A DNA stretch of 24,000 nucleotides from Candidatus Saccharimonadales bacterium (GCA_035479655.1 DATIIL010000005.1:166213-190212), one strand, 5' to 3'; shown: positions 28-13,853, counted from the first letter of the stretch. Notes: generated from the sequence alone by a model not told the origin. A program made the numbers and translations.

Positions 28-86
28 CTACCGCTTTCGCTCTCTATAGAGCTCATCAGCACGACTATACATTCGTGGAGCAGTAG
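28..86 (-). ncRNA. Type III hammerhead ribozyme HH-A (canonical core)
   Basis: Minus strand reads CTACTGC-TC|CACGA-atgtatag-TCGTG-CTGATGA-GCTC-tataga-GAGC-GAAA-GCGGTAG. Stems I and II are hairpin-closed and stem III is open (7 bp including one G-U). The CUGAUGA and GAAA core is complete. Predicted cleavage is 3' of the C at 78. Confidence 0.9.
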
Positions 87-931: not shown

Positions 932-934
932 CAA

Positions 935-989
935 TACTGCTTTCGCTCTTTCAAGCTCATCAGCATAGACATACATCTATGGAGCAGTA
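935..989 (-). ncRNA. Type III hammerhead ribozyme HH-B (canonical core)
   Basis: Minus strand reads TACTGC-TC|CATAG-atgtatgt-CTATG-CTGATGA-GCTT-gaaa-GAGC-GAAA-GCAGTA. Stem II is capped by a GAAA tetraloop. Predicted cleavage is 3' of the C at 982. Confidence 0.9.
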
Positions 990-1063
990 GGCAGACGTGG
1001 TACAGAGAGGATGGGGTTAAACGTCGCAGCGCGACAACCGTGATCCAGATGTCTGACTACTGC
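984..1063 (-). other. Long imperfect 3' UTR hairpin of cassette 2
   Basis: Arms gcagtaggcagac (984-996) and gtctgactactgc (1051-1063) have a single mismatch. Inner helices are GGTT/AACC and gtcgc-agc-gcgac. The element lies between the stop at 1094 and HH-B. Confidence 0.7.
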
Positions 1064-1093: not shown

Positions 1094-1618
1094 TCAACGG
1101 ACACAAACCTGCTGAACGGCCTTATCGATGATCTGCCCGATCTCCTCCAGCGGCAGCTTGCACCCGATGATCCGGATGGTAGCCGGCATGGAAGTGAGCA
1201 GGTCTTCGCTACCCCGAAGAGTGGCGTAGACGAGCACAACCACGTGCGGGCCGAGCTGATCGGCGATCCGGTCGCGCACCTCGTCACGCTGTTCCGGCTT
1301 GAGGCCGTAGCGCATGATGATGTGCATCGACGGGGCGCCGTCGATCCGCAGGAACGCTGCCAGAATGTTCGCCGCCTGGTTGGCGACGTCCTCGATGTCG
1401 GCCGTTTCCTGCACCATCACGATGTAGGATGCCAAGAGGTCATACCCCAGGACATCCGTGACAGCGGGAATGCTGTACAGGAGCTCGCCGCCCTGGTTGA
1501 ACGCAGCGAGCGAGCCACCGTGGCCACCCAGAATGTCGATGACGACACACGGCCTGCCATCGGCAGTACGGTCCGGAGCGGCCTTGATTCGGCCGCCGAA
1601 GAACTCGAGCTCGGTCAT
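1094..1618 (-). CDS. Hypothetical protein, GC-rich cassette cargo family 1 (about 174 aa)
   Basis: ORF 1094..1651 trimmed to the ATG at 1618 (MTELEFF...), which has GGAGGA 9 nt upstream. GC3 is high. The antisense ORF 1040..1753 is rejected. The block ...KPEQRDEVRDRIADQLGPHVVVLVYA aligns with TDAEQATLRKQLVAELGDDVVVMTCT of 186..752. Confidence 0.8.
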   Translation of the reverse strand: MTELEFFGGRIKAAPDRTADGRPCVVIDILGGHGGSLAAFNQGGELLYSIPAVTDVLGYDLLASYIVMVQETADIEDVANQAANILAAFLRIDGAPSMHIIMRYGLKPEQRDEVRDRIADQLGPHVVVLVYATLRGSEDLLTSMPATIRIIGCKLPLEEIGQIIDKAVQQVCVR

Positions 1619-1660
1619 GACTATGAATCCTCCCTTGTGTCGGAGACTCAACGTTTGGAG

Positions 1661-1708
1661 AACGCGAGCTGGGAAAAGGCAACAGATTGTCTTCTCTCAG
1701 CTCGCGTT
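1661..1708 (-). promoter_or_regulatory. 5' leader hairpin of cassette 2
   Basis: An 11 bp stem pairs aacgcgagctg (1661-1671) with cagctcgcgtt (1698-1708). The loop contains the ttgcctttt motif (minus strand) that recurs in the array 2 leaders. Confidence 0.6.
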
Positions 1709-1781
1709 GTCCACGCCCGGTACTGTTTCTATTTCTGTACCACTGTCTGCTAAAGTACCTCAACGGAGTTGAGACGATAAA

Positions 1782-1810
1782 ATTATAACATAAAACTGTT
1801 AGATTGGCTA
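1782..1810 (-). promoter_or_regulatory. Promoter of cassette 2 (extended -10)
   Basis: Minus strand reads TAGCCA-17 nt-(TGt)TATAAT. The -35 element abuts the 3' strand of HH-C stem III. Confidence 0.55.
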
Positions 1811-1861
1811 CTGCTTTCGCTCTATAGAGCTCATCAGCACGACTAGCATTCGTGGAGCAGT
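1810..1861 (-). ncRNA. Type III hammerhead ribozyme HH-C (canonical core)
   Basis: Minus strand reads ACTGC-TC|CACGA-atgctag-TCGTG-CTGATGA-GCTC-tata-GAGC-GAAA-GCAGT. Predicted cleavage is 3' of the C at 1855. Confidence 0.9.
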
Positions 1862-1936
1862 CATCAGACACAGATACAGGTTGGGGGAGCGCCGAAGGGC
1901 ACCGCAGCCAGCCGTGTAACCACGTCTGAGGACTGC
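1857..1936 (-). other. Long imperfect 3' UTR hairpin of cassette 3
   Basis: Arms gcagtcatcagac (1857-1869) and gtctgaggactgc (1924-1936) have one mismatch. An extra GC hairpin gcggcc-ggat-ggccgc lies between arm 2 and the stop at 1972. Confidence 0.7.
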
Positions 1937-2601: not shown

Positions 2602-2630
2602 ATTATATCATGATATCTGCTCAAATTCTA
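2602..2630 (-). promoter_or_regulatory. Promoter of cassette 3 (extended -10)
   Basis: Minus strand reads TAGAAT-17 nt-(TGa)TATAAT, directly after the 3' end of HH-D. The short leader contains an 8 bp hairpin capped by UUCG. Confidence 0.55.
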
Positions 2631-2683
2631 GTCGTTTCGCTGCCATTACAGCTCATCGGAATAGCTCTTACTCTATTGACGAC
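2631..2683 (-). ncRNA. Hammerhead-like element HH-D with variant core (U4 to C)
   Basis: Minus strand reads GTCG-TC|AATAG-agtaagag-CTATT-CCGATGA-GCTG-taatgg-CAGC-GAAA-CGAC. All three stems and GAAA are present, but the core reads CCGAUGA instead of CUGAUGA. Confidence 0.6.
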
Positions 2684-2739
2684 AAGTGGGTAGGGAACGG
2701 AAGGCTTTAAAAGAGCTTCGGCTCTACCTATCCCACTTG
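2683..2739 (-). other. Imperfect hairpin adjacent to HH-D
   Basis: caagtgggtagg (2683-2694) pairs with cctatcccacttg (2727-2739) with a one-nucleotide bulge. The loop holds a small agagc-ttcg-gctct stem. Confidence 0.55.
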
Positions 2740-4102: not shown

Positions 4103-4596
4103 AGCGCCCAAGCCTCGGTGGGTTTCGGCGTTTTGTCCCCGGTCATCGTCCCAGCATCCAAGAAGTGGTGCACGAGACCACCGCTGGCGGCGTGATTTTT
4201 CGGCGCAATAAGGAATCTGGCAAGCTAGAAATCCTGTTAATCCAAGACGCGAAGGACCGCTGGACGATTCCAAAAGGTCACGTAGAAGAAGGCGAAGAGC
4301 CCAAAGGGACGGCCGAGCGCGAGATCAACGAAGAAACCGGCCTAAAAGAAATGAAAGTCTTTAACTGGCTGGGCAAAGTGAACTTCCGCTACCGCCGAGC
4401 GCAGGTGTTGGTGCTCATGACTATGCACATTTACTTAGTACAGGCGCTGGGGGACACCAACGATTTACACCCCGAAGACTGGCTGAACGACATCAAATGG
4501 TTCCCGGCCAGCGAAGCCATCGACAAGATCGCTTACGACGACATCGGCAAATTAATTCTAGTGGGAATGAAAAAAATCCGCGATGCAAGACTCTAG
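4099..4596 (+). CDS. NUDIX hydrolase
   Basis: The Nudix box GHVEEGEEPKGTAEREINEETG matches GX5EX7REUXEEXGU. The ATGA start overlaps the nusB stop. Confidence 0.85.
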   Translation: MKRPSLGGFRRFVPGHRPSIQEVVHETTAGGVIFRRNKESGKLEILLIQDAKDRWTIPKGHVEEGEEPKGTAEREINEETGLKEMKVFNWLGKVNFRYRRAQVLVLMTMHIYLVQALGDTNDLHPEDWLNDIKWFPASEAIDKIAYDDIGKLILVGMKKIRDARL

Positions 4597-5281
4597 CGCC
4601 TATGCAACCTTTGCCCAAGAGACTTTGGGCATTACCTTTGACGACATCCAGCTGCTGATCACCGCCTTCACTCACCGCTCGTATCTAAATGAGCACAAAA
4701 AAAGCGCTAGCGAGCATAACGAGCGCCTAGAATTCCTGGGCGACGCCGTGCTGGAACTGGTCGTTACCGAATATCTATACGCTACCTTTAGCGAGCCCGA
4801 AGGTATCCTCACTAACTGGCGCAGTAGCTTGGTACGCACCGAAAGCATTGGTGCAGCCGCCGCCAAGTATGGTTTTGAGCCGTTGCTTCGCCTGAGTCGC
4901 GGTGAGCGGCGCGGCACCGACCGCGCCCGGGCGCAGATTCTGGCCAACAGTTACGAAGCGGTGGTGGGAGCGATTTACCTAGATAAGGGTTACGAAGCCG
5001 CGAAGGCCTTCATCACCAAGACCATCTTAAGCACCTTTAAACAGATTTTACAGACTGGCTCGTGGCTAGACCCCAAATCACACCTGCAGGAAGTGGCCCA
5101 GAGCCGCGACGGCCACACTCCGATGTACAAAGTATTGAGCGAAGAAGGCCCGGACCACGAAAAAGTCTTTACCGTAGGCGTCTTTGTGGGCGGCAAGCTG
5201 AAAGGCACCGGTGTGGGTCCGAGCAAACAAGCCGGCCAGCAAAAAGCAGCCGAAGCGGCGCTGGTTGGCTACGGCGACTAG
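4583..5281 (+). CDS. rnc: Ribonuclease III
   Basis: The catalytic signature NERLEFLGDAVLELVV and a C-terminal dsRBD (GPDHEKVFTVGVFVGGKLKGTGVGPSKQAGQQKAAEAAL) are present. Confidence 0.95.
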   Translation: MQDSSAYATFAQETLGITFDDIQLLITAFTHRSYLNEHKKSASEHNERLEFLGDAVLELVVTEYLYATFSEPEGILTNWRSSLVRTESIGAAAAKYGFEPLLRLSRGERRGTDRARAQILANSYEAVVGAIYLDKGYEAAKAFITKTILSTFKQILQTGSWLDPKSHLQEVAQSRDGHTPMYKVLSEEGPDHEKVFTVGVFVGGKLKGTGVGPSKQAGQQKAAEAALVGYGD

Positions 5282-7065: not shown

Positions 7066-7497
7066 ATGTTAGCTATCCGCATGCAACGCACCGGCCGCAA
7101 AGGCCACGCCATGTTCCGCGTCGTGGTTCAAGACTCGCGCGTAACGCCGACTAGCGGTAAAGTCGTTGCACTGCTTGGCAGCTACGACCCGCACACCAAG
7201 AGTGCCGCCTTGGACAAAACTCAGGCCGAAAATTTTCTAAAGAATGGCGCCCAGCCGTCTGACCGCATTGCTGCGCTATTCAAGCAAGAAGGCATTAGAC
7301 TGCCGGAGTGGGTAACGCTAGCCACTAAGAAAGTCGGCAAGCTGCGTAACCCGGAAAAACTGCGCAAGAACCAGCCGAAAGAGGCGGCAGCTCCTGTCGA
7401 AACCCCGGCTGAAGAACCGGCCGCCGAAGCAGCAGCAGCCGAGGCGACAAGCGAAGCTCCAGCTGCCGAAACAGACGCGGAGAAAACTGAAGCATAG
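7066..7497 (+). CDS. rpsP: 30S ribosomal protein bS16 with Ala/Glu/Pro-rich C-terminal extension
   Basis: MLAIRMQRTGRKGHAMFRVVVQDSR is the canonical S16 N-terminus. Confidence 0.95.
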   Translation: MLAIRMQRTGRKGHAMFRVVVQDSRVTPTSGKVVALLGSYDPHTKSAALDKTQAENFLKNGAQPSDRIAALFKQEGIRLPEWVTLATKKVGKLRNPEKLRKNQPKEAAAPVETPAEEPAAEAAAAEATSEAPAAETDAEKTEA

Positions 7498-8027: not shown

Positions 8028-8176
8028 ACGTCGGCCGCATAAAAACTGTTGTCAAAGTTCTTACGCTGCGTTACACTGAATTTTAGTCGACCACGACTGA
8101 CCTTAAAAACAAAAACTGTATGAGCTCATGCGAGCCACGTCGTTTGCAAGAACGATCTGGGAGCTTTATATGTGGC

Positions 8177-8207
8177 AAAAAGACCGGCAAATATGTCGGT
8201 CTTTTTG
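8177..8207. terminator. Bidirectional rho-independent terminator
   Basis: The stem agaccg/cggtct is flanked by A5 and T5. It can terminate the KH gene (plus strand) and the GHKL operon (minus strand). Confidence 0.75.
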
Positions 8208-8282
8208 TTTGTCTTTGTTATTTGGCTGAGTATAGTGCCACCGCTCAGACCCGCCACGCACATCGAGATATGCGAGAAGGGA

Positions 8283-8362
8283 GTGAGCGGTGGGCAGAAC
8301 GGGATTCGTTGGGGCCGCTTGCGCGACCTCATACGAGCCGTTCTGCCCACCTGCCTGCTCAC
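8283..8362 (-). other. Long imperfect 3' hairpin of the HTH-GHKL operon
   Basis: gtgagcggtgggcagaacgg (8283-8302) pairs with ccgttctgcccacc..tgctcac (8338-8362) with a 5 nt bulge. The segment tgagcggtgg (8284-8293) is also complementary to ccaccgctca at 8238-8247. Confidence 0.55.
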
Positions 8363-8395
8363 GCAGACAAATCGCTCCTGAGAGGTATTTACTTG

Positions 8396-10066
8396 TTATT
8401 CAGTTTCGTCACCCGCGCGCTTCCGCGAGCGGCTGGCGCTGGGGATGATGATCAGCTCCGCGTAGGGACCGGCCTTCAGGTCGATCGGTGCCCGGGTGAT
8501 CTCCAGGTCCAGTTCCAGCGACAGCGCCACCAGCAGTTCCAGGGTGAGCCACTCCTGTAGGTGCATGATCCTGCGATCGTGCTCCGTGGTGTGCTCACCC
8601 TTGGTTTCGTCCATCAGCACCCATGTGGGATGCCGAATGTTGAACGTCAGGATGCACTCGTCGTGGCTGTATTCCCACAACCGGTCAGAGGCCAGGGCCT
8701 CATGTGCGTACCGAAGCGGGAAACCACGACGCGGATCGTGCGGCCGGCGTTCGGGCCGTGGGCCGACCACCTTACGGCGTTTAGAAGACGTGCCCGTCTT
8801 GGGCGTGGCTTCTTCCCGTCGCTTGGTGGCCGCCAGGGCATCCTCCTGGGAGGGCAGGAACCTGGCCAGGTCGGCCAGATCGCTGTTCTTCCGGAAGAGT
8901 TCGCGCAGCCGTTCCAGCGACCGCTGTCCGAGTCGGGCATGACGCTCCTCGCGCAGCGCTTCGCGCTCGTTCTCGAGGAGGTTGCTGCCGTACCGGCTGA
9001 ACCAGGTATCTACGACGAAGTAGAAGTTGGTCAGCAGGTCGTTGGCCACGAACAGGTCACGGGACTTACCCAGCTCAAGGTGTTCGACGGTGATCATACC
9101 CTCAAAGTAGCCCGAGCGCAGTGCGCTGATGGCTTCCTTGATGGAGTCGATCTGTTGCCACTGCGTCCCCATGAGCTGGGTAGAGAATTTACCCTTGACC
9201 GGGATGGGGTTGTCCGGATCCTCTTTGCTGCGGACCCACACTTCTCCTTCCCGTTGTCCGCTGTCGCCGCGTCGAGCCTTGAACAGCTCGAACGTGACGC
9301 GGCCGCAGACGCTGTCTTCGATGGTGACGATGTCGAGCCGCTCGCCCCGGAATTCATGGGGGTCGATGGTTCGCCATTCCACGCTACCGTCGGCAGCGAT
9401 CAGTACGGCCAGCACCGTAGTGCCCAGGCGCCGCATGGCCGCGCTAAACCGGCCGCGGATGATCGATTCCACGTCGTTGAGCGACGCGATGCCGATCGTC
9501 CTGTCCTGCGTGATCTCGTTGAGACGGACCATAGTCCGCCACCCGTTGATCATCGGCAGGCCGGCCAGCCGGATGAACGGCGCAGCCGGGTTTGGGCTGA
9601 AGGTCGGGCGGGTGGTGAGCGGGATCTGCACGGCCTTTTGGGCCTTGATCTTCTCCTGCTCAAAGGTCCACACGTTGACCACCGGACTGCCCGCGGGTTG
9701 GCTCCAGAACTCGAACAACCGGCACTTGGCCAGCGGCGAGATCAGACCCAGCCCGAAGCGTCCGATGCTTCCCGGCTTCTTGATGCCCTTGCCGACAGTC
9801 AGAAGTGCTTCATTGAATCGCTCTTCCGTCACGCCTTCGCCATTGTCACAGACGATGATCGAGCGCTTGGGAAGGTCGACGCCAATGAAGATCGTCGGAG
9901 CTCCAGCGTCGAGGGCGTTCTGTACGCCTTCGGCCACGGTTTGAGCCAGCGAGGGATAGGTGTTGGAGTACGTCATGAACGTCTCCCCCATGTGCACCCC
10001 CGCATCGACCATCCGGACATCTCCGTGCGGCGGCCGACCCGGCTGAGGGGCCGATTTCGTTGGCAT
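8396..10066 (-). CDS. GHKL-superfamily ATPase (HATPase_c_3 / MORC-like N-terminal domain), 556 aa
   Basis: Bergerat-fold motifs are in order: N box AEGVQNALDAG, G1 box CDNGEGV, G2 box GRFGLGL. AGGAGG lies 4 nt upstream of the ATG at 10066 and overlaps the upstream gene's stop codon. GC3 is high. The C-terminal two-thirds are unassigned. Confidence 0.85.
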   Translation of the reverse strand: MPTKSAPQPGRPPHGDVRMVDAGVHMGETFMTYSNTYPSLAQTVAEGVQNALDAGAPTIFIGVDLPKRSIIVCDNGEGVTEERFNEALLTVGKGIKKPGSIGRFGLGLISPLAKCRLFEFWSQPAGSPVVNVWTFEQEKIKAQKAVQIPLTTRPTFSPNPAAPFIRLAGLPMINGWRTMVRLNEITQDRTIGIASLNDVESIIRGRFSAAMRRLGTTVLAVLIAADGSVEWRTIDPHEFRGERLDIVTIEDSVCGRVTFELFKARRGDSGQREGEVWVRSKEDPDNPIPVKGKFSTQLMGTQWQQIDSIKEAISALRSGYFEGMITVEHLELGKSRDLFVANDLLTNFYFVVDTWFSRYGSNLLENEREALREERHARLGQRSLERLRELFRKNSDLADLARFLPSQEDALAATKRREEATPKTGTSSKRRKVVGPRPERRPHDPRRGFPLRYAHEALASDRLWEYSHDECILTFNIRHPTWVLMDETKGEHTTEHDRRIMHLQEWLTLELLVALSLELDLEITRAPIDLKAGPYAELIIIPSASRSRKRAGDETE

Positions 10067-10074
10067 GACCCCTC

Positions 10075-10818
10075 CTAGTTGTCGGTCGGACGCTGGCCGC
10101 GAGCACGCTGTCCGTCGTGCAGCCGCTCCGAGTTGAGCCCTTCGGTGAGAAGGACCATGTCGAAGACCACCTTCGGACCGACCAGCTCGCGAACTTGCGC
10201 CCGTTGGGCGGGCGTGTAGCGACCCGACATCACTTCCCGAAGCAGCGGTGCGGCCTTGCCGAACGCTTCACCCAGCTGGATGGCGATAGCCATCAAGTCG
10301 GGCGCGCCCGGCGTGGCGTTTGCCGCTGCCGCCGCGGTTGCTACGGGGACGGTCGCGGTGGTGGCAGGTTCGTCACCCGGGTTGTAGGCCCGATCGCCGA
10401 GCTTCTCGCGAAGCTTGGCTTGGGCTTTCTTGAGCCGGTCGCCATACTCCGTTTGCAGCGCGGTGAGCGTCTTCGTCGGCTTCAGGAACTTCGAGTCGCC
10501 GCGGGCGGCATTGAGCACCGCCTGCGACTGCTTGACGTGGCCGATCCGCATGGCCTGTGCCAGGTCGATGACCCGGTAGGCCAGCAACTGCCCGACGTAG
10601 TACTCGAGTTCATTGACCTCGCGCGTCGGACCGTTGACCGCTTCCAACAGGTGCCAGAGGCGGTTGATGTGTGCGCCGGTCGGCGGGTGTTTCCCGCTGA
10701 GCCATCCCTGTACAGTACCAGGAACGGTCACCGTGAAGCCCGCCACCAGGCGGAGGTCGAGTCCTGCTGCACGCAGCTCTTCGACGAGCTGGTTGGCAAG
10801 GCTCCGGCTCTCGGCCAT
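10075..10818 (-). CDS. Putative XRE-like helix-turn-helix protein (247 aa)
   Basis: ORF 10075..10887 trimmed to the ATG at 10818 (MAESRSL...), which has GAGGAGG 5 nt upstream. The N-terminal segment VAGFTVTVPGTVQGWLSGKHPPTGAHINRLWHLL resembles an HTH_XRE motif. The gene appears translationally coupled to the GHKL gene. Confidence 0.75.
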   Translation of the reverse strand: MAESRSLANQLVEELRAAGLDLRLVAGFTVTVPGTVQGWLSGKHPPTGAHINRLWHLLEAVNGPTREVNELEYYVGQLLAYRVIDLAQAMRIGHVKQSQAVLNAARGDSKFLKPTKTLTALQTEYGDRLKKAQAKLREKLGDRAYNPGDEPATTATVPVATAAAAANATPGAPDLMAIAIQLGEAFGKAAPLLREVMSGRYTPAQRAQVRELVGPKVVFDMVLLTEGLNSERLHDGQRARGQRPTDN

Positions 10819-10901
10819 GGCGCCTCCTCTCTTCTTGTGAAACCAGCACCGGCGGTTGCCGATGCTTCTTACAATCTCTCCTCTCAAGAGTGATCATGCT
10901 A

Positions 10902-10930
10902 GTTATACTATTTTTCAGGCTCTGATACAA
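10902..10930 (-). promoter_or_regulatory. Candidate promoter of the HTH-GHKL operon
   Basis: Minus strand reads TTGTAT-17 nt-TATAAC. The leader contains the hairpin gcatcggc-aacc-gccggtgc. Confidence 0.45.
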
Positions 10931-10952
10931 GCATGAGCGTAGCCGTCGGGGC

Positions 10953-10985
10953 ATAATAAAAGAGCCGAACGAGTCGGCTCTTTTG
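10953..10985 (-). terminator. Rho-independent terminator after the LPXTG protein gene
   Basis: An 8 bp stem agagccga/tcggctct is flanked by A and T runs on both sides. Confidence 0.75.
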
Positions 10986-11008
10986 GTTGATTTTCTAGAG
11001 TGTTTGTC

Positions 11009-11659
11009 TTAGGCGTTCTGCGCGCGACGGTGGCGCAAGTAGTAACCGACGTAACCAGCCACAGCGACGATGCTCGAAATGATGAACACGTTGCTACCGG
11101 TACCGGTGTCCGGCAAAACCGGAGGGGTTACTGGCGGCGTAGGAGGGGTCGGTGGGGTCGGAGGAGTCGGCGGGGTAACAGGGGTACAACTCTGAGTACC
11201 ACCGTGCAACGAGCCGAGTAGCAGACCCTTAGTGTATTGCGGGCCACCGTTTGCGTCCGTGGCGTTCGAACCGCGCAGCAGGTCAACCTGGTAGAAGCAG
11301 TCAGGCAATTTTACGTTAATGGTGTGCGTGCCCGGAGCGAACGTTTCGGTTTTGTGGGCAAACAGTTTTTGCTGATCGTAGGGCTGGCCCTTGTCGGCGT
11401 TTGGCGCTTGCCAAGCGGCAAAGGTTACGGCCTGGGTACAGTCGGTGCCGCTCACGATAACCGTGGCGCTCACCGTGCCGTCGTTGTTCAGCACAAAACG
11501 GCTGTTTGATTGACCAACAGTGTCTCTGTTACCAACCGTGGTCACCGTACAGGTGGTCGACGTGCTGGTAGCAGTGTCGGCGCTCACAACAGCGGGGACG
11601 AAGCTCAAAAGGCTTATCACGCTGGCTGCGCCTAGCAGAGTACGCTTAAAAGTATTCAT
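11009..11659 (-). CDS. LPXTG-anchored surface protein with Pro-Thr linker
   Basis: The signal peptide is MNTFKRTLLGAASVISLLSFVPAVVSA. A (TPP)n linker is present. The sorting signal is LPDTG, a hydrophobic segment and RHRRAQNA. AGGAG lies upstream. GC content matches the backbone. Confidence 0.85.
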   Translation of the reverse strand: MNTFKRTLLGAASVISLLSFVPAVVSADTATSTSTTCTVTTVGNRDTVGQSNSRFVLNNDGTVSATVIVSGTDCTQAVTFAAWQAPNADKGQPYDQQKLFAHKTETFAPGTHTINVKLPDCFYQVDLLRGSNATDANGGPQYTKGLLLGSLHGGTQSCTPVTPPTPPTPPTPPTPPVTPPVLPDTGTGSNVFIISSIVAVAGYVGYYLRHRRAQNA

Positions 11660-11692
11660 TTCTCACAAACTCCTCAATAAGTAACAATATGT

Positions 11693-11721
11693 ATTATACT
11701 ATCATAAACACAATATGTCAA
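11693..11721 (-). promoter_or_regulatory. Consensus promoter driving the LPXTG gene, directly after HH-E
   Basis: Minus strand reads TTGACA-17 nt-TATAAT exactly. Confidence 0.7.
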
Positions 11722-11741
11722 GCATGTTACCAAGCTTGCGG

Positions 11742-11792
11742 CCGCTTTCGCTGTTTCCAGCTCATCAGCATGAACACACATTCATGGAGCGG
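11742..11792 (-). ncRNA. Type III hammerhead ribozyme HH-E (canonical core)
   Basis: Minus strand reads CCGC-TC|CATGAA-tgtgtg-TTCATG-CTGATGA-GCTG-gaaa-CAGC-GAAA-GCGG. Predicted cleavage is 3' of the C at 11787. Confidence 0.9.
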
Positions 11793-11890
11793 TAAAGCAG
11801 ACACAGAGTTTGATAGTAGAGTAGGAAGTTGTTTTAGTCCGAGGACCAAAACACCAATCCACATCCACATCTCTGTGAATGCTTTACCGC
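11789..11890 (-). other. Long imperfect 3' UTR hairpin of cassette X1
   Basis: The 20 nt arms gcggtaaagcagacacagag (11789-11808) and ctctgtgaatgctttaccgc (11871-11890) have a 2 nt internal mismatch. An apical stem gtttt.gtc-cgag-gac.aaaac is present. Confidence 0.7.
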
Positions 11891-11947
11891 CCGTTGAAGG
11901 GCAGGCTACTCCCAGAGTGCATGGGTGAGGGTAGTGACCCCTTCAGG

Positions 11948-12655
11948 TTAGACGACCACGATCTTCAGGCCCGGGGGCATGTCGCCGCCGAAGAAGCCGC
12001 GGATGTCGTCTTCGACCTGTTGCTGGATGCGCTGCCGCTCGGCCTCGTACGCCGCTTCAGCCGCTGCCGCCGCGCGCAGTTCGCCCGTCGGGTCGGCGAA
12101 GTCCATGATGACTCCTTCGACCAGCGGGTCGATGTTCTCGTCGTCCTTGTAGAGCGCGGCGACGCGCGTGAAGGCGACGTCGTCGTGCTCCAGGTTGACC
12201 GCCAGCACGTGGCTGACACCGTCGACCGAGAGCAGCCGCTCGCGCAGGCTGTCCAGGTCGTCGACCTGCGGCAGGTCGGCCCCGATGCAGACGTCGCCGC
12301 TCTTGAGCATGACGCTCATGAGGACGCTCTGCAGCGCCGCGATCAGCGTCTCCCGCTGGGCGGGGTCGCTGATGGTGACGGTGCCGATGGCCATGACGGT
12401 CTCGGTGCCGCCGTTGCCGTCGGGTCGCCAGCCGGACTCGGCGTCGTCCATGTCGTGCAGGTCGCGGTCCCAGACCACGGACTGCACGCCGGTGACGCCG
12501 GGGAGCTGAGTCAGCAGCACCAGGTGCTGCCAGTCGTTGGGCACCCGCCCGGCGACGCGGATCTCGATCTGGTCGGGCTCCGTGCCGGCGATGGCGGTGA
12601 ACGAGCCGAAGAACGGCTGGAAGAACGGCCGTTGGTTGTCGGGCGTCTCGAACAT
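11948..12655 (-). CDS. Hypothetical protein, GC-rich cassette cargo family 2 (235 aa)
   Basis: ORF 11948..12712 trimmed to the ATG at 12655 (MFETPDN...), which has AAGGAG 6 nt upstream. GC3 is high. The antisense ORF 11879..12730 is rejected. It shares long identical blocks with 13059..13598. Confidence 0.8.
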   Translation of the reverse strand: MFETPDNQRPFFQPFFGSFTAIAGTEPDQIEIRVAGRVPNDWQHLVLLTQLPGVTGVQSVVWDRDLHDMDDAESGWRPDGNGGTETVMAIGTVTISDPAQRETLIAALQSVLMSVMLKSGDVCIGADLPQVDDLDSLRERLLSVDGVSHVLAVNLEHDDVAFTRVAALYKDDENIDPLVEGVIMDFADPTGELRAAAAAEAAYEAERQRIQQQVEDDIRGFFGGDMPPGLKIVVV

Positions 12656-12694
12656 TCGAAACTCCTTGGTACTCTTCACTTCACTCGCCCAGTG

Positions 12695-12734
12695 CGAGCT
12701 AGCAAAAGGCAAAATATTACCTTCTGTTAGCTCG
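12695..12734 (-). promoter_or_regulatory. 5' leader hairpin of cassette X1
   Basis: The stem cgagcta (12695-12701) pairs with tagctcg (12728-12734), with an inner AAGG/CCTT helix and a ttgcctttt loop motif. The 3' arm can instead form CTCGC-actgg-GCGAG. Confidence 0.55.
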
Positions 12735-12812
12735 TACTGGACGCACTATCAAATACATTGTGTCTGCTAAGGTACTTAGCCATAGGCAAGAAGCCGTTGA
12801 CGAAGCGCACTT

Positions 12813-12841
12813 ATTATACAATTCGCGCGCTTTTATGTCAA
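12813..12841 (-). promoter_or_regulatory. Consensus promoter of cassette X1
   Basis: Minus strand reads TTGACA-17 nt-TATAAT exactly, 10 nt after the 3' end of HH-F. Confidence 0.75.
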
Positions 12842-12850
12842 CGGAGGTAA

Positions 12851-12903
12851 ACCGCTTTCGTCTTTTTAGACTCATCAGCATGAACACGCATTCATGGAGC
12901 GGT
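12851..12903 (-). ncRNA. Type III hammerhead ribozyme HH-F (canonical core)
   Basis: Minus strand reads ACCGC-TC|CATGAA-tgcgtg-TTCATG-CTGATGA-GTCT-aaaa-AGAC-GAAA-GCGGT. Predicted cleavage is 3' of the C at 12897. Confidence 0.9.
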
Positions 12904-13001
12904 AAAGCAGACACAGAGAGTTTGATAGTAGAGTAAGAAGTTGTTTCGTCCGAAGACGAAACACCAACCGCATCCACATCTCTCTGTGAATGCTTTACCG
13001 C
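12899..13001 (-). other. Long imperfect 3' UTR hairpin of cassette X2
   Basis: The 22 nt arms at 12899-12920 and 12980-13001 have the same 2 nt internal mismatch as X1. The apical 8 bp stem at 12943-12962 reads C(UUCG)G on the minus strand. Confidence 0.7.
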
Positions 13002-13058
13002 CCGTTGAAGGGCAGGCTACTCCCAGAGTGCATGGGTGAGGGTAGCGAGCCTTTCAGG

Positions 13059-13598
13059 TCAGACGACGTCCGCCAGGACCTCCTCGATCGTCTCCTCGAC
13101 ACTCGAGTCACCCTGGTACAGGATGGCGATCCGCGTGAGCGGGGCGCCGTGGAGGAGGTTGACCGCCAGCACGTGGCTGACACCGTCGACCGAGAGCAGC
13201 CGCTCGCGCAGGCTGTCCAGGTCGTCGATCGCCGGGATGTCCTCAACGATGCAGTAGTCGTCGTTCAGGAACATGACGCTCTCGATGACGCTCTGCAGCG
13301 TCGCGATCAGCGTCTCCCGCTGGGCGGGGTCGGCGATCGTGATGGTGGCGGTGGCCACGGTCGTGACGGCTTCCACGGCCTCGGCGGCGTTGTGGCTGTC
13401 GGCGAGGTCGCTCAACTCGTGCAGGTCGCGGTCCCAGACCACGGACTGCATGCCGGCGACGCCGGTGAGCAGGGTCTGCAGCACCAGGTGCTGCCACGCA
13501 TTCGGCACCTCGCCCATGATGCGGAGCTCGATGATCTCGGGCTTCACGCCGGCGGCGATGGTGACCGAACCGATGAACGGCACCCTGTCCTCGGACAT
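13059..13598 (-). CDS. Hypothetical protein, GC-rich cassette cargo family 2 (179 aa)
   Basis: ORF 13059..13697 trimmed to the ATG at 13598 (MSEDRVPF...), which has AAGGAG 7 nt upstream. GC3 is high. The antisense ORF 12990..13670 is rejected. Confidence 0.8.
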   Translation of the reverse strand: MSEDRVPFIGSVTIAAGVKPEIIELRIMGEVPNAWQHLVLQTLLTGVAGMQSVVWDRDLHELSDLADSHNAAEAVEAVTTVATATITIADPAQRETLIATLQSVIESVMFLNDDYCIVEDIPAIDDLDSLRERLLSVDGVSHVLAVNLLHGAPLTRIAILYQGDSSVEETIEEVLADVV

Positions 13599-13634
13599 GT
13601 GGTACTCCTTCGTGCTATATACTTCACTCGCCCA

Positions 13635-13680
13635 GTGCGAGCTACCAAAAGGCAACGAATTACCTTCTAGTAGCTCGCAC
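13635..13680 (-). promoter_or_regulatory. 5' leader hairpin of cassette X2
   Basis: A 10 bp stem pairs gtgcgagcta (13635-13644) with tagctcgcac (13671-13680). The loop carries ttgcctttt (minus strand). An alternative CTCGC-actgg-GCGAG hairpin lies downstream. Confidence 0.6.
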
Positions 13681-13761
13681 CGCAGGCGTACTATCAAACA
13701 AATCTAGTGTCTGCTAATGTGCTTTGCCATACGTAATAAAACCGATGACAAAGATAGTAAT

Positions 13762-13790
13762 ATTATACAATTTGATGTTGACTATGTCAA
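13762..13790 (-). promoter_or_regulatory. Consensus promoter of cassette X2
   Basis: Minus strand reads TTGACA-17 nt-TATAAT exactly, about 10 nt after the 3' end of HH-G. Confidence 0.75.
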
Positions 13791-13800
13791 CTAAGTATTG

Positions 13801-13853
13801 ACCGCTTTCGCTGTTTCCAGCTCATCAGCACAAATACACATTTGTGGAGCGGT
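13801..13853 (-). ncRNA. Type III hammerhead ribozyme HH-G (canonical core)
   Basis: Minus strand reads ACCGC-TC|CACAAA-tgtgta-TTTGTG-CTGATGA-GCTG-gaaa-CAGC-GAAA-GCGGT. Predicted cleavage is 3' of the C at 13847. Confidence 0.9.

Follow-up and report, generated by a model that had tools for sequence, protein, structure and literature searches.

Two arrays of gene cassettes that end in type III hammerhead ribozyme sequences were found on the minus strand of a 24,000-nt stretch of DNA (the window), which is part of CAZWKP010000001.1 (GCA_964634155.1, "Candidatus Saccharimonadales bacterium"). Each hammerhead is the 3′ module of a compact cassette that runs from promoter to ribozyme on one strand. 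The sequences make it very probable that these are genuine hammerhead ribozymes, and folding predictions suggest that the 5′ leader of an mRNA may turn on the ribozyme at its own 3′ end. The three hammerheads of array 2, called E, F and G, are described first.

Hammerhead sequences in the window

Read on the minus strand, hammerheads E, F and G (reverse complements of 11742-11792, 12851-12903 and 13801-13853, respectively) have the order (A)CCGC-UC^-stem I-CUGAUGA-stem II-GAAA-GCGG(U), with the caret at the predicted point of cleavage. The 5′ strand of stem III, (A)CCGC, is followed by U16.1, C17 and a 6-bp stem I with a 6-nt loop; then come CUGAUGA, a 4-bp stem II closed by a tetraloop, GAAA and the 3′ strand of stem III, GCGG(U). 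The core (C3 U4 G5 A6 N7 G8 A9, G12 A13 A14, A15.1-U16.1 and H17) is complete in E, F and G and in three canonical copies of array 1, and the sequences and model alignments show the type III topology, with stems I and II closed by loops and stem III open. A sequence-only reading of this DNA had described E, F and G as canonical hammerheads with compensatory changes in their stems. Their sequences, the alignment to Rfam family RF00008 and a family-specific covariance model bear this out, since all three are whole, of type III and intact in the core. The helices are exactly as that reading quoted them: E and F have CAUGAA/UUCAUG as stem I, where G has CACAAA/UUUGUG, and E and G share GCUG-GAAA-CAGC as stem II, where F has GUCU-AAAA-AGAC. 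The scissile bonds that it predicted (11787/11786, 12897/12896 and 13847/13846) agree with the C17 positions in the model alignments, and it was also right that the hammerheads form arrays and share the strand of the adjacent GC-rich open reading frames (ORFs), which is the minus strand.

The pattern CTGATGAG-N8-30-CGAAA matches the window seven times, always on the minus strand, while shuffled sequences gave an expectation of 0.01 matches. The earlier count of seven hammerheads in 24 kb is slightly off, since six copies are canonical. A degenerate copy lies at 2628-2686, and the seventh pattern match, the string at 15343-15377 (minus strand), where CTGATGAG...CGAAA occurs within trmD, was rejected as a chance match because it has neither flanking helices nor a covariance-model match. 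The sequence-only reading had proposed a covariance-model search. At the gathering threshold (48.5 bits for RF00008), the Rfam scan of the window returned no match; in E-value mode, Hammerhead_3 (RF00008) aligned end to end at five sites of the window with 32-41 bits. With the covariance model R1, built from relatives of the family, the full copies in the window numbered six (55-78 bits), and the degenerate copy and a further copy just left of the window were also found. E, F and G were supported by both E-value mode and R1. Relatives in other genomes are also below the Rfam threshold (33.9-38.4 bits, or not listed). The low scores are due to loops that are short and, in the case of loop II, lack 4 nt of the model; the core is sound.

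The degenerate copy, at the head of array 1, has the core CCGAUGA (U4C) and is probably inactive. The copy just left of the window (L002, 13378-13434) also carries U4C, so that such copies sit at both ends of array 1. The core reads CUGAUGA in 120 of 126 family members and CUGACGA in another 3, a change at position 7, which is known to vary in hammerheads; CCGAUGA was found only in these two boundary copies, and U4 is invariant in 123 others. Directly after the L002 copy comes the ribosome-binding site (RBS) of a promoter-less 258-aa HAD-like gene of host composition. The two U4C copies may be deliberately disabled ribozymes: a U4C change in a hammerhead that runs into a promoter-less gene fits a cost of cleavage where the downstream gene would depend on read-through.

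A hammerhead family across Saccharibacteria

A species-representative genome collection was scanned with a pattern derived from the copies in the window, and the same hammerhead was found at no fewer than 118 loci. About 90% of the matches listed are from Saccharibacteria of oral, gut and soil origin; also among those listed are a few labelled as other phyla of the candidate phyla radiation and four or five evident chance matches. Judged by sequence, about a hundred species of Saccharibacteria share this design of cassette. A phage origin of the cassettes was considered and rejected, as none of 2.9 million viral contigs carries the hammerhead. In the literature searched, no paper tying hammerheads to Saccharibacteria or Patescibacteria was found, probably because of the position of the family below the Rfam threshold.

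Covariation was analyzed in a gap-free alignment of 39 distinct 57-nt hammerhead sequences. In the canonical structure 93.3% of the cells are paired, compared with 29-48% when the partners are slid. Cells with compensatory double changes number 110, against 40 ± 5 in shuffled alignments, and none of 500 shuffles reached 110. Double changes occur at 12 of the 18 pairs, and there are covarying pairs in each of the three helices. The compensatory changes noticed among E, F and G thus extend to relatives from other genomes. The loops are conserved as well: loop I starts with an invariant U followed by G in over 90% of the sequences, and loop II has A at three positions in 90-100%. These conserved bases, from which the array-1 copies with UAUA or AUAG loops deviate, are compatible with a tertiary contact between loops I and II, of the kind that fast cleavage at physiological Mg2+ requires.

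Architecture of the cassettes

A cassette of array 2 starts with a consensus sigma70 promoter, about 35-45 nt containing a small hairpin, the sequence that we call the 5′ box, a leader hairpin and an AGGAG RBS. The ORF of 179-235 aa is followed by a 3′ untranslated region (UTR), which measures 110-165 nt and contains a long hairpin, and by the 3′ box and the hammerhead; the next promoter begins 8-9 nt further on (Table 1). Array 1 repeats the design in four cassettes, of which three fall within the window. Other Saccharibacteria share the design, usually as single cassettes and also in arrays of two or three. No intrinsic terminator was found between cassettes on the minus strand; the sole clear one (10957-10985) follows the gene that ends array 2. 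This gene (11009-11659, minus strand) codes for an LPXTG-anchored TPP-repeat surface protein and has a short leader with no 5′ box; where a cassette would have its hammerhead, there is a classical bidirectional terminator. Both solutions to making a 3′ end thus stand side by side.

For the leader hairpin, RNAalifold gave 23 pairs from six copies, and compensatory changes were seen at 14 of these. The leaders of the window matched no Rfam family, and the hairpin, with its GAGCU/AGCUC core, is a candidate new cis-regulatory RNA motif whose place corresponds to that of RAGATH-10 in oral cassettes. An Rfam "mir-61" match (1655-1714, plus strand) is the antisense of one leader hairpin. A metagenome scan with a leader pattern of the window type was discarded: it returned 120 loci, none with a hammerhead, the pattern being too loose.

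In other genomes only a few nucleotides, and no terminator, often separate the hammerhead from the 3′ end of a convergent gene (L028, ~1610-1700; L047, ~7365-7450; many oral loci). At such loci an uncleaved cassette transcript would run on as antisense RNA to the neighbour. At L059 (hammerhead 1281-1337, minus strand) and L100 the upstream genes are ordinary-looking (UPF0176/rhodanese and RpoA-CTD-like, respectively) with no recognisable 5′ box; evidently, the 3′ module is not confined to full cassettes.

Complementarity between the two ends of the transcript

The 3′ box consists of about 20 nt just upstream of stem III and is complementary to the 5′ box in the leader of the same gene. Its consensus is CUGCUUGUCA and its version in the window UGUGUCUGCU; the invariant part of the 5′ box in array 2 is UUAGCAGACA(CA). 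An exact complement of 10 nt or more was found in the gene's own leader at 73 of 107 loci, while an equal-sized downstream control never exceeded 9 nt. The two boxes change jointly, as seen in the pairs UGACAAGUGA with UCACUUGUCA, UGAUAAGU with ACUUAUCA, GACAAACAGAUAC with GUAUCUGUUUGUC and CGACAGACAACCAA with UUGGUUGUCUGUCG. The match of a 3′ box averaged 9.45 nt in its own leader and 7.63 nt in other leaders, the own leader being better in 43 of 55 cases (permutation p < 1e-4). For the seven cassettes of this genome, own duplexes had a mean energy of -34.1 kcal/mol compared with -25.3 kcal/mol for swapped ones, and the own leader was the best partner in six. The complementarity runs, with interruptions, over about 30-40 nt right up to the ribozyme. 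Ungapped extension of the pairing was uninformative because the duplexes contain bulges. The boxes of the window (UUAGCAGACA / UGUCUGCUU) align to the soil-type boxes (UUUGACAAGCAGACA / UGUCUGCUUGUCA) of L024, L039, L060, L062 and L079.

In array 1, the 3′ strand before hammerhead 934-990 (ACCACGUCUG, 982-1030, minus strand) perfectly complements the 5′ strand of the 3′-UTR hairpin of the preceding cassette (CAGACGUGGU, 1900-1935), and is less complementary to its own hairpin strand. This match may be the trace of recombination between neighbouring cassettes.

Predicted switch between two folds

The minimum free energy (MFE) structure of the 3′ UTR plus hammerhead was similar for all six units of the window: stems I and II form and stem III is replaced by the long hairpin. 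In isolated 3′ modules the catalytic fold costs 3.9-11.0 kcal/mol by constrained folding, and the pair probability of stem III is at most 0.001. When the own leader was added, it was predicted to form 25-37 pairs with the distal part of the 3′ strand, a gain of -9 to -17 kcal/mol, and in three of four cassettes tested the hairpin opened and stem III formed. In the array-2 cassettes the own leader raised stem III from 0 to 6, 6 and 5 of its 6 pairs; shuffled leaders left it at 0. The comparison was extended to 59 distinct cassettes, where stem III was part of the MFE structure in 4 modules folded alone, in 40 folded with their own leader and in 13 folded with a shuffled leader. Discordant cassettes numbered 29 in favour of the own leader and 2 in favour of the shuffled one. 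The cleaved product is predicted to end as a blunt terminal hairpin.

These predictions also bear on a rival explanation, namely that the hammerheads are active but constitutive 3′-processing or insulator elements, and that the complementarity has no control over the ribozyme and serves only a protective panhandle or an RNase III stalk after cleavage, or stems from common descent of the leader and the hairpin strand. The isolated 57-nt hammerhead is predicted to fold correctly, and the base of the hairpin and stem III share 4-6 pairs, so that simple branch migration could permit unaided cleavage. Furthermore, shuffled leaders "activated" 13 of the 59 cassettes, 19 ignored their own leader, and some cassettes have no 5′ box. 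Nevertheless, stem III formed in just 4 of the 59 isolated modules, its formation carries a predicted penalty of 4-11 kcal/mol in those of the window, and the difference between own and shuffled leaders is large. We regard constitutive activity as fairly unlikely.

Proposed mechanism

On balance, we lean toward a mechanism in which the hammerhead defines and protects the 3′ end of the cassette mRNA and is licensed by the 5′ leader. The consensus sigma70 promoter would fire and the cassette be strongly transcribed. In the resulting RNA the 5′ box would lie at a distance of about 35-45 nt from the 5′ terminus and be followed by the structured leader, the RBS and a small ORFan ORF with raised GC content at third codon positions (GC3). 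The long 3′-UTR hairpin would take up the 3′ box and the 5′ strand of stem III and so hold the ribozyme "off" until the 5′ box of the same RNA paired with the distal part of that strand, which would open the hairpin and let stem III form. Cleavage after C17 would then free the mRNA from any read-through RNA, no terminator being present between cassettes, and leave a 2′,3′-cyclic phosphate. The new 3′ end could be kept in a 5′-3′ panhandle or in a blunt terminal hairpin, either of which would shield both ends and make cleavage irreversible, with no re-ligation.

Several points weigh against this mechanism. Our data show the motif, its covariation, the anatomy of the cassettes, the covarying complementarity of their two boxes and the predicted competition between folds; cleavage in vivo, licensing by the leader and stabilisation we infer. 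The switching itself is a nearest-neighbour prediction that leaves out tertiary contacts, co-transcriptional kinetics, ribosomes and proteins. Every copy in the window scores below the curated Rfam threshold (32.2-41.0 versus 48.5 bits). About a third of the cassettes (19 of 59) did not respond in silico to their own leader, and some, such as L059, L021, L075 and L069, have no recognisable 5′ box. Cassette A2-3, which ends in hammerhead E, did not switch when the leader was taken from the transcription start, and did so with a leader centred on the box. A comparison of sense and antisense duplex energies (see below) was reversed for the window's own units, and its overall support is modest. 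Finally, the cargo has no common function, and the need for such a module is not accounted for.

A broader reading is a ribozyme-based mRNA architecture in which a leader anti-hairpin licenses the hammerhead and yields end-paired, pseudo-circular (in arrays, truly circular) mRNAs for fast-evolving ORFan proteins. The shift of their codon usage towards that of high-GC actinobacterial hosts would suggest that the cassettes serve the epibiont in host interaction. In its extreme form, the RNAs or their products would be made for use in the host cell. We hold this broader reading to be distinctly unlikely.

Pairing at the RNA or the DNA level

The two boxes could instead be DNA terminal inverted repeats of mobile cassettes, moved by a recombinase or transposase encoded elsewhere, with the hammerhead as a passenger or a part of the life cycle. 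Inverted repeats around highly diverse cargo, the many genomic positions and the tandem arrays are in line with this idea, as is the composition of the cargo, which is unlike that of the host genome. The setting of array 2 is also suggestive. The genes rpsP-khpA-rimM-trmD-rplS usually form a single neighbourhood; here, array 2 and three more genes interrupt the conserved rpsP-khpA...trmD order. The block that separates khpA and trmD consists of about 6.4 kb of minus-strand genes (8396-14778): a GHKL/MORC-like ATPase (556 aa) and a 247-aa protein of unknown type, both with GC3 of about 0.80, the LPXTG surface protein and array 2. No rimM was recognisable in this neighbourhood. The block looks like an inserted island, and the diversity of the cargo together with the interrupted operon fits mobility.

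Several points speak against this idea. Both boxes lie inside the transcription unit, and the promoter and the hammerhead are outside the "repeat". Bulges and G.U pairs are accommodated in the pairing, which extends, interrupted, over about 30-40 nt up to the ribozyme. There are G.U-rich 3′-UTR hairpins that pair with the same strand (for example, four G.U pairs in 19 bp at L010), and G.U outnumbers A.C by 120 to 53 in the flank beside the cleavage site. The better duplex came from the sense strand in 49 of 73 cassettes (p = 0.006), although this test is weak and runs the other way in the window's own units. Because the boxes are inside the transcript, the hairpins are rich in G.U, G.U exceeds A.C and the sense strand is favoured, these data point to pairing at the RNA rather than the DNA level. 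In addition, no integrase or transposase domain was detected within ±10 kb. We consider terminal repeats of mobile DNA an improbable account of the boxes.

Tandem arrays as possible sources of unit-length RNA

Tandem hammerheads could also release unit RNAs of 873-1110 nt with a 5′-OH and a 2′,3′-cyclic phosphate, to be circularised by RtcB or by reversal of the hammerhead reaction. The same-strand type III arrays of the window, with units of 1110, 950, 904 and 873 nt and no terminators between them, would suit such a process, arrays exist in other genomes too, and type III is the topology used by circular RNAs. Since most cassettes have a single hammerhead, circles are not the general function, and since each unit has a strong promoter of its own, most transcripts would start past the previous hammerhead with a triphosphate end. 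We rate this possibility as improbable, slightly below that of mobile repeats.

Natural origin of the region

Some features give the region a synthetic look, namely perfect TTGACA-17-TATAAT promoters and spacers of about 45% GC around ORFs of about 68% GC. Directly after hammerhead E there is GCGGCCGCAAGCTT (11728-11741), which contains NotI and HindIII sites and whose GCGG is the 3′ strand of stem III; it is a coincidence in natural sequence. A synthetic construct was ruled out by the 498-kb contig of a metagenome-assembled genome on which the window lies, by housekeeping neighbours, by independent assemblies and by the lack of any match to the region among plasmid records. The flank on one side contains nusB, a NUDIX gene, rnc, rpsP and khpA, that on the other trmD, a Ni-SOD gene and cytochrome oxidase genes, and the context of array 1 was independently assembled from four sequencing runs (Logan). 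That the hammerheads are non-functional relics or chance resemblances, or that the region is engineered or chimeric, as sub-threshold Rfam scores, GCGGCCGCAAGCTT, the perfect promoters and the AT-rich spacers around GC-rich ORFs might suggest, is hardly credible and effectively refuted by this genomic context together with covariation over about 100 species and seven pattern matches versus 0.01 expected.

Table 1. Features of the hammerhead cassettes in the window. Bit scores refer to the family model R1 and to Rfam RF00008; energies give the cost of the hammerhead-active state in constrained folding.
Feature	Position	Strand	Details
Hammerhead E, type III; 3′ module of the 235-aa cargo cassette	11739-11795	-	C17 = 11787; R1 74.0 bits; RF00008 32.2 bits, full model
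Hammerhead F, type III; 3′ module of the 179-aa cargo cassette	12849-12905	-	C17 = 12897; R1 77.5 bits; RF00008 41.0 bits
Hammerhead G, type III; 3′ module of the 188-aa cargo cassette	13799-13855	-	C17 = 13847; R1 75.9 bits; RF00008 35.2 bits
Array-1 hammerhead, follows 188-aa cargo (186-752)	28-86	-	R1 57.6 bits
Array-1 hammerhead, follows 174-aa cargo (1094-1618)	934-990	-	R1 72.4 bits; RF00008 34.3 bits
Array-1 hammerhead, follows 187-aa cargo (1972-2535)	1808-1863	-	R1 54.9 bits; RF00008 35.5 bits
Degenerate hammerhead, head of array 1, core CCGAUGA (U4C)	2628-2686	-	R1 25.8 bits
Promoter, cassette A2-1: TTGACA, 17-nt spacer, TACAAT, extended TG	14679-14707	-	11/12 matches
Promoter, cassette A2-2: TTGACA-17-TATAAT, starts 9 nt past hammerhead G	13762-13790	-	12/12 matches
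Promoter, cassette A2-3: TTGACA-17-TATAAT, starts 8 nt past hammerhead F	12813-12841	-	12/12 matches
Promoter of the LPXTG surface-protein gene, just past hammerhead E	11693-11721	-	Perfect promoter
5′ box, cassette A2-1: UUAGCAGACACA, complements the 3′ box upstream of hammerhead G	14629-14640	-	
5′ box, cassette A2-2: UUAGCAGACAC, then second helix segment UUUGAUAGU; both complement the 3′ strand upstream of hammerhead F	13707-13717	-	
5′ box, cassette A2-3: UUAGCAGACACA, 5-nt loop, UUUGAUAGU; complements ACUAUCAAA...UGUGUCUGCU upstream of hammerhead E	12745-12770	-	
Leader hairpin, cassette A2-3, GAGCU/AGCUC core, between 5′ box and RBS	12689-12740	-	RNAalifold
Equivalent leader hairpins	~13633-13684, ~14557-14610; array-1 leaders 753-881, 1619-1757	-	GAGCU/AGCUC core
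Cargo, 235 aa, ORFan, GC3 0.945	11948-12655	-	Gene call; no Pfam, NCBIfam or PADLOC match
Cargo, 179 aa, paralogue of the 235-aa protein (58% identity), GC3 0.956	13059-13598	-	Predicted tandem ferredoxin-like fold
Cargo, 188 aa, distant paralogue (27-29% identity), GC3 0.847	13957-14523	-	Gene call
3′-UTR hairpin, cassette A2-3; 3′ strand = 3′ box (UGUGUCUGCU) plus 5′ strand of stem III to C17	11787-11892	-	MFE; predicted hammerhead-active state +9.8 kcal/mol
3′-UTR hairpin, cassette A2-2, same design	12897-13003	-	MFE; predicted hammerhead-active state +11.0 kcal/mol
3′-UTR hairpin, cassette A2-1, same design	13847-13951	-	MFE; predicted hammerhead-active state +3.9 kcal/mol

Relation to known systems

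The hammerheads of the window are new members of the type III class and resemble the type III hammerheads of sTRSV and the avsunviroids (RF00008, clan CL00010) in CUGAUGA...GAAA, A15.1-U16.1, C17 and the open stem III. Their architecture is close to the sTRSV type, with a 6-bp stem I and a 6-nt loop that starts with UG, and a stem II of 4 bp closed by GAAA or AAAA. In viroid RNAs a more stable alternative fold competes with the active hammerhead fold, and a stabler alternative is predicted here too; in the cassettes, it is a local 3′-UTR hairpin that the leader is predicted to open. Unlike those RNAs, the hammerheads described here are encoded in the DNA of a bacterial chromosome, stand at the 3′ end of protein mRNAs that have their own promoters, and do not reach the Rfam gathering score. 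Retrozymes and Obelisk-type viroid-like RNAs likewise have units of about 0.9-1.1 kb between same-strand type III hammerheads and self-complementary ends. The cassettes differ from them in being chromosomal, and in having a promoter per unit, diverse ORFs and mostly a single hammerhead.

Part of the cassette had already been seen in earlier comparative genomics. RAGATH motifs are reportedly due to Weinberg et al. (Nat Chem Biol, 2015); a 2017 paper in NAR makes no mention of them. In many oral genomes, the leader of a small gene followed by a hammerhead contains RAGATH-10 (RF03147, 49-92 bits; L007, L010, L011, L013, L016, L026, L028 and L033; for the acronym, see PMC11061315), and the closing helix of this element overlaps the Shine-Dalgarno sequence. 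These cassettes are like those of the window in that a small gene with no annotated function stands between conserved RNA elements, with a hammerhead downstream and homologous 5′ and 3′ boxes; they differ in the leader, which in the window is another covarying hairpin, and no RAGATH match was obtained in the window at E <= 10. In the literature searched, there appears to be no description of the covarying complementarity of the two boxes, of a hairpin in competition with stem III, of the predicted licensing by the leader, of the GC3-shifted ORFan cargo or of the near-restriction to Saccharibacteria.

Martick et al. are said to have described, in 2008, a discontinuous hammerhead in the 3′ UTR of rodent Clec2 mRNAs that cuts the message in cis. 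A mammalian 3′-UTR hammerhead lowers expression by removing the poly(A) tail. The position in the 3′ UTR is shared, whereas the cut in the bacterial cassettes would more plausibly make a protected 3′ end and separate the mRNA from read-through RNA. The processing stalks of rRNA and phage mRNAs, in which paired 5′ and 3′ flanks are RNase III substrates, are similar in their long-range pairing of leader and trailer; the cassettes differ in that a self-cleaving ribozyme adjoins the partner, for which a cis hairpin competes as well. The RNase III gene in the window, rnc (4583-5281), is an ordinary housekeeping neighbour. RiboJ-type insulators and engineered 3′ ribozyme-hairpin stabilisers also give context-independent ends, and in them too a terminal hairpin stabilises the RNA. 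The cassettes, unlike these devices, are natural and covary over about 100 species, and their ribozyme is at the 3′ end and not between promoter and RBS.

Catalogues of bacterial hammerheads go back 15 years, and to our knowledge hardly any of these ribozymes has been assigned a function. The family described here offers a case at the level of a phylum, with a fixed place at the mRNA 3′ end, a fixed partner in the 5′ box and a predicted on/off switch that is open to mutagenesis in cultivable, genetically tractable Saccharibacteria. Cassettes of this type are present in cultivated Nanosynbacter or Southlakia strains (for example, TM7-053, L047). If the proposed mechanism is true, it would represent a natural alternative to terminators for making bacterial 3′ ends as well as a natural allosteric ribozyme governed by the 5′ end of its own RNA. 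The cassettes mark a large pool of diverse ORFans of odd composition in obligate epibionts, which are candidates for host interaction. Routine annotation misses the whole family because it is sub-threshold in Rfam.

Cargo and neighbouring genes

Searches of the cargo proteins of the window against Pfam, NCBIfam and PADLOC returned nothing. The proteins of array 1 form a second family; an attempt to join them to those of array 2 was abandoned, as hhalign gave a probability of 2%. The 179-aa protein of array 2 has no homologue outside this genome among 5.8 billion proteins. Its AlphaFold model (pLDDT, the predicted local distance difference test, 82; pTM, the predicted template modelling score, 0.73) shows tandem beta-alpha-beta units, with no significant match in the PDB. 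Across genomes, the 112 ORFs upstream of hammerheads fall into 50 families, 42 of them singletons, and a Pfam domain was recognised in 6 of 27 representatives, the domains being heterogeneous.

The cargo genes of the window have GC3 values of 0.81-0.96 compared with 0.59-0.75 in its housekeeping genes, and cargo GC3 exceeds the background of the locus in 71 of 92 cassettes (p ~1e-10). Possible causes are biased gene conversion through frequent recombination of the conserved flanks, foreign origin, selection on the RNA, or adaptation to high-GC actinobacterial hosts.

In the neighbourhood of khpA and trmD, an ORF at 8120-8560, which overlaps the ATPase gene, has no Pfam match and no gene call. 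Just three or four weak relatives of the array-2 cargo came out of a profile search against 1.84 billion cluster representatives. The closest of those outside this genome, P0004 (E = 1e-9), is encoded in a similar cassette (L125/L126) in the JGI soil metagenomes 3300012212 and 3300012469. This cassette combines a GC-rich ORF with a structured leader and a hairpin on the 3′ side, and its contig stops at ...CACTGTTTCTGCT, in the 3′ box and exactly where the hammerhead would be expected to start.

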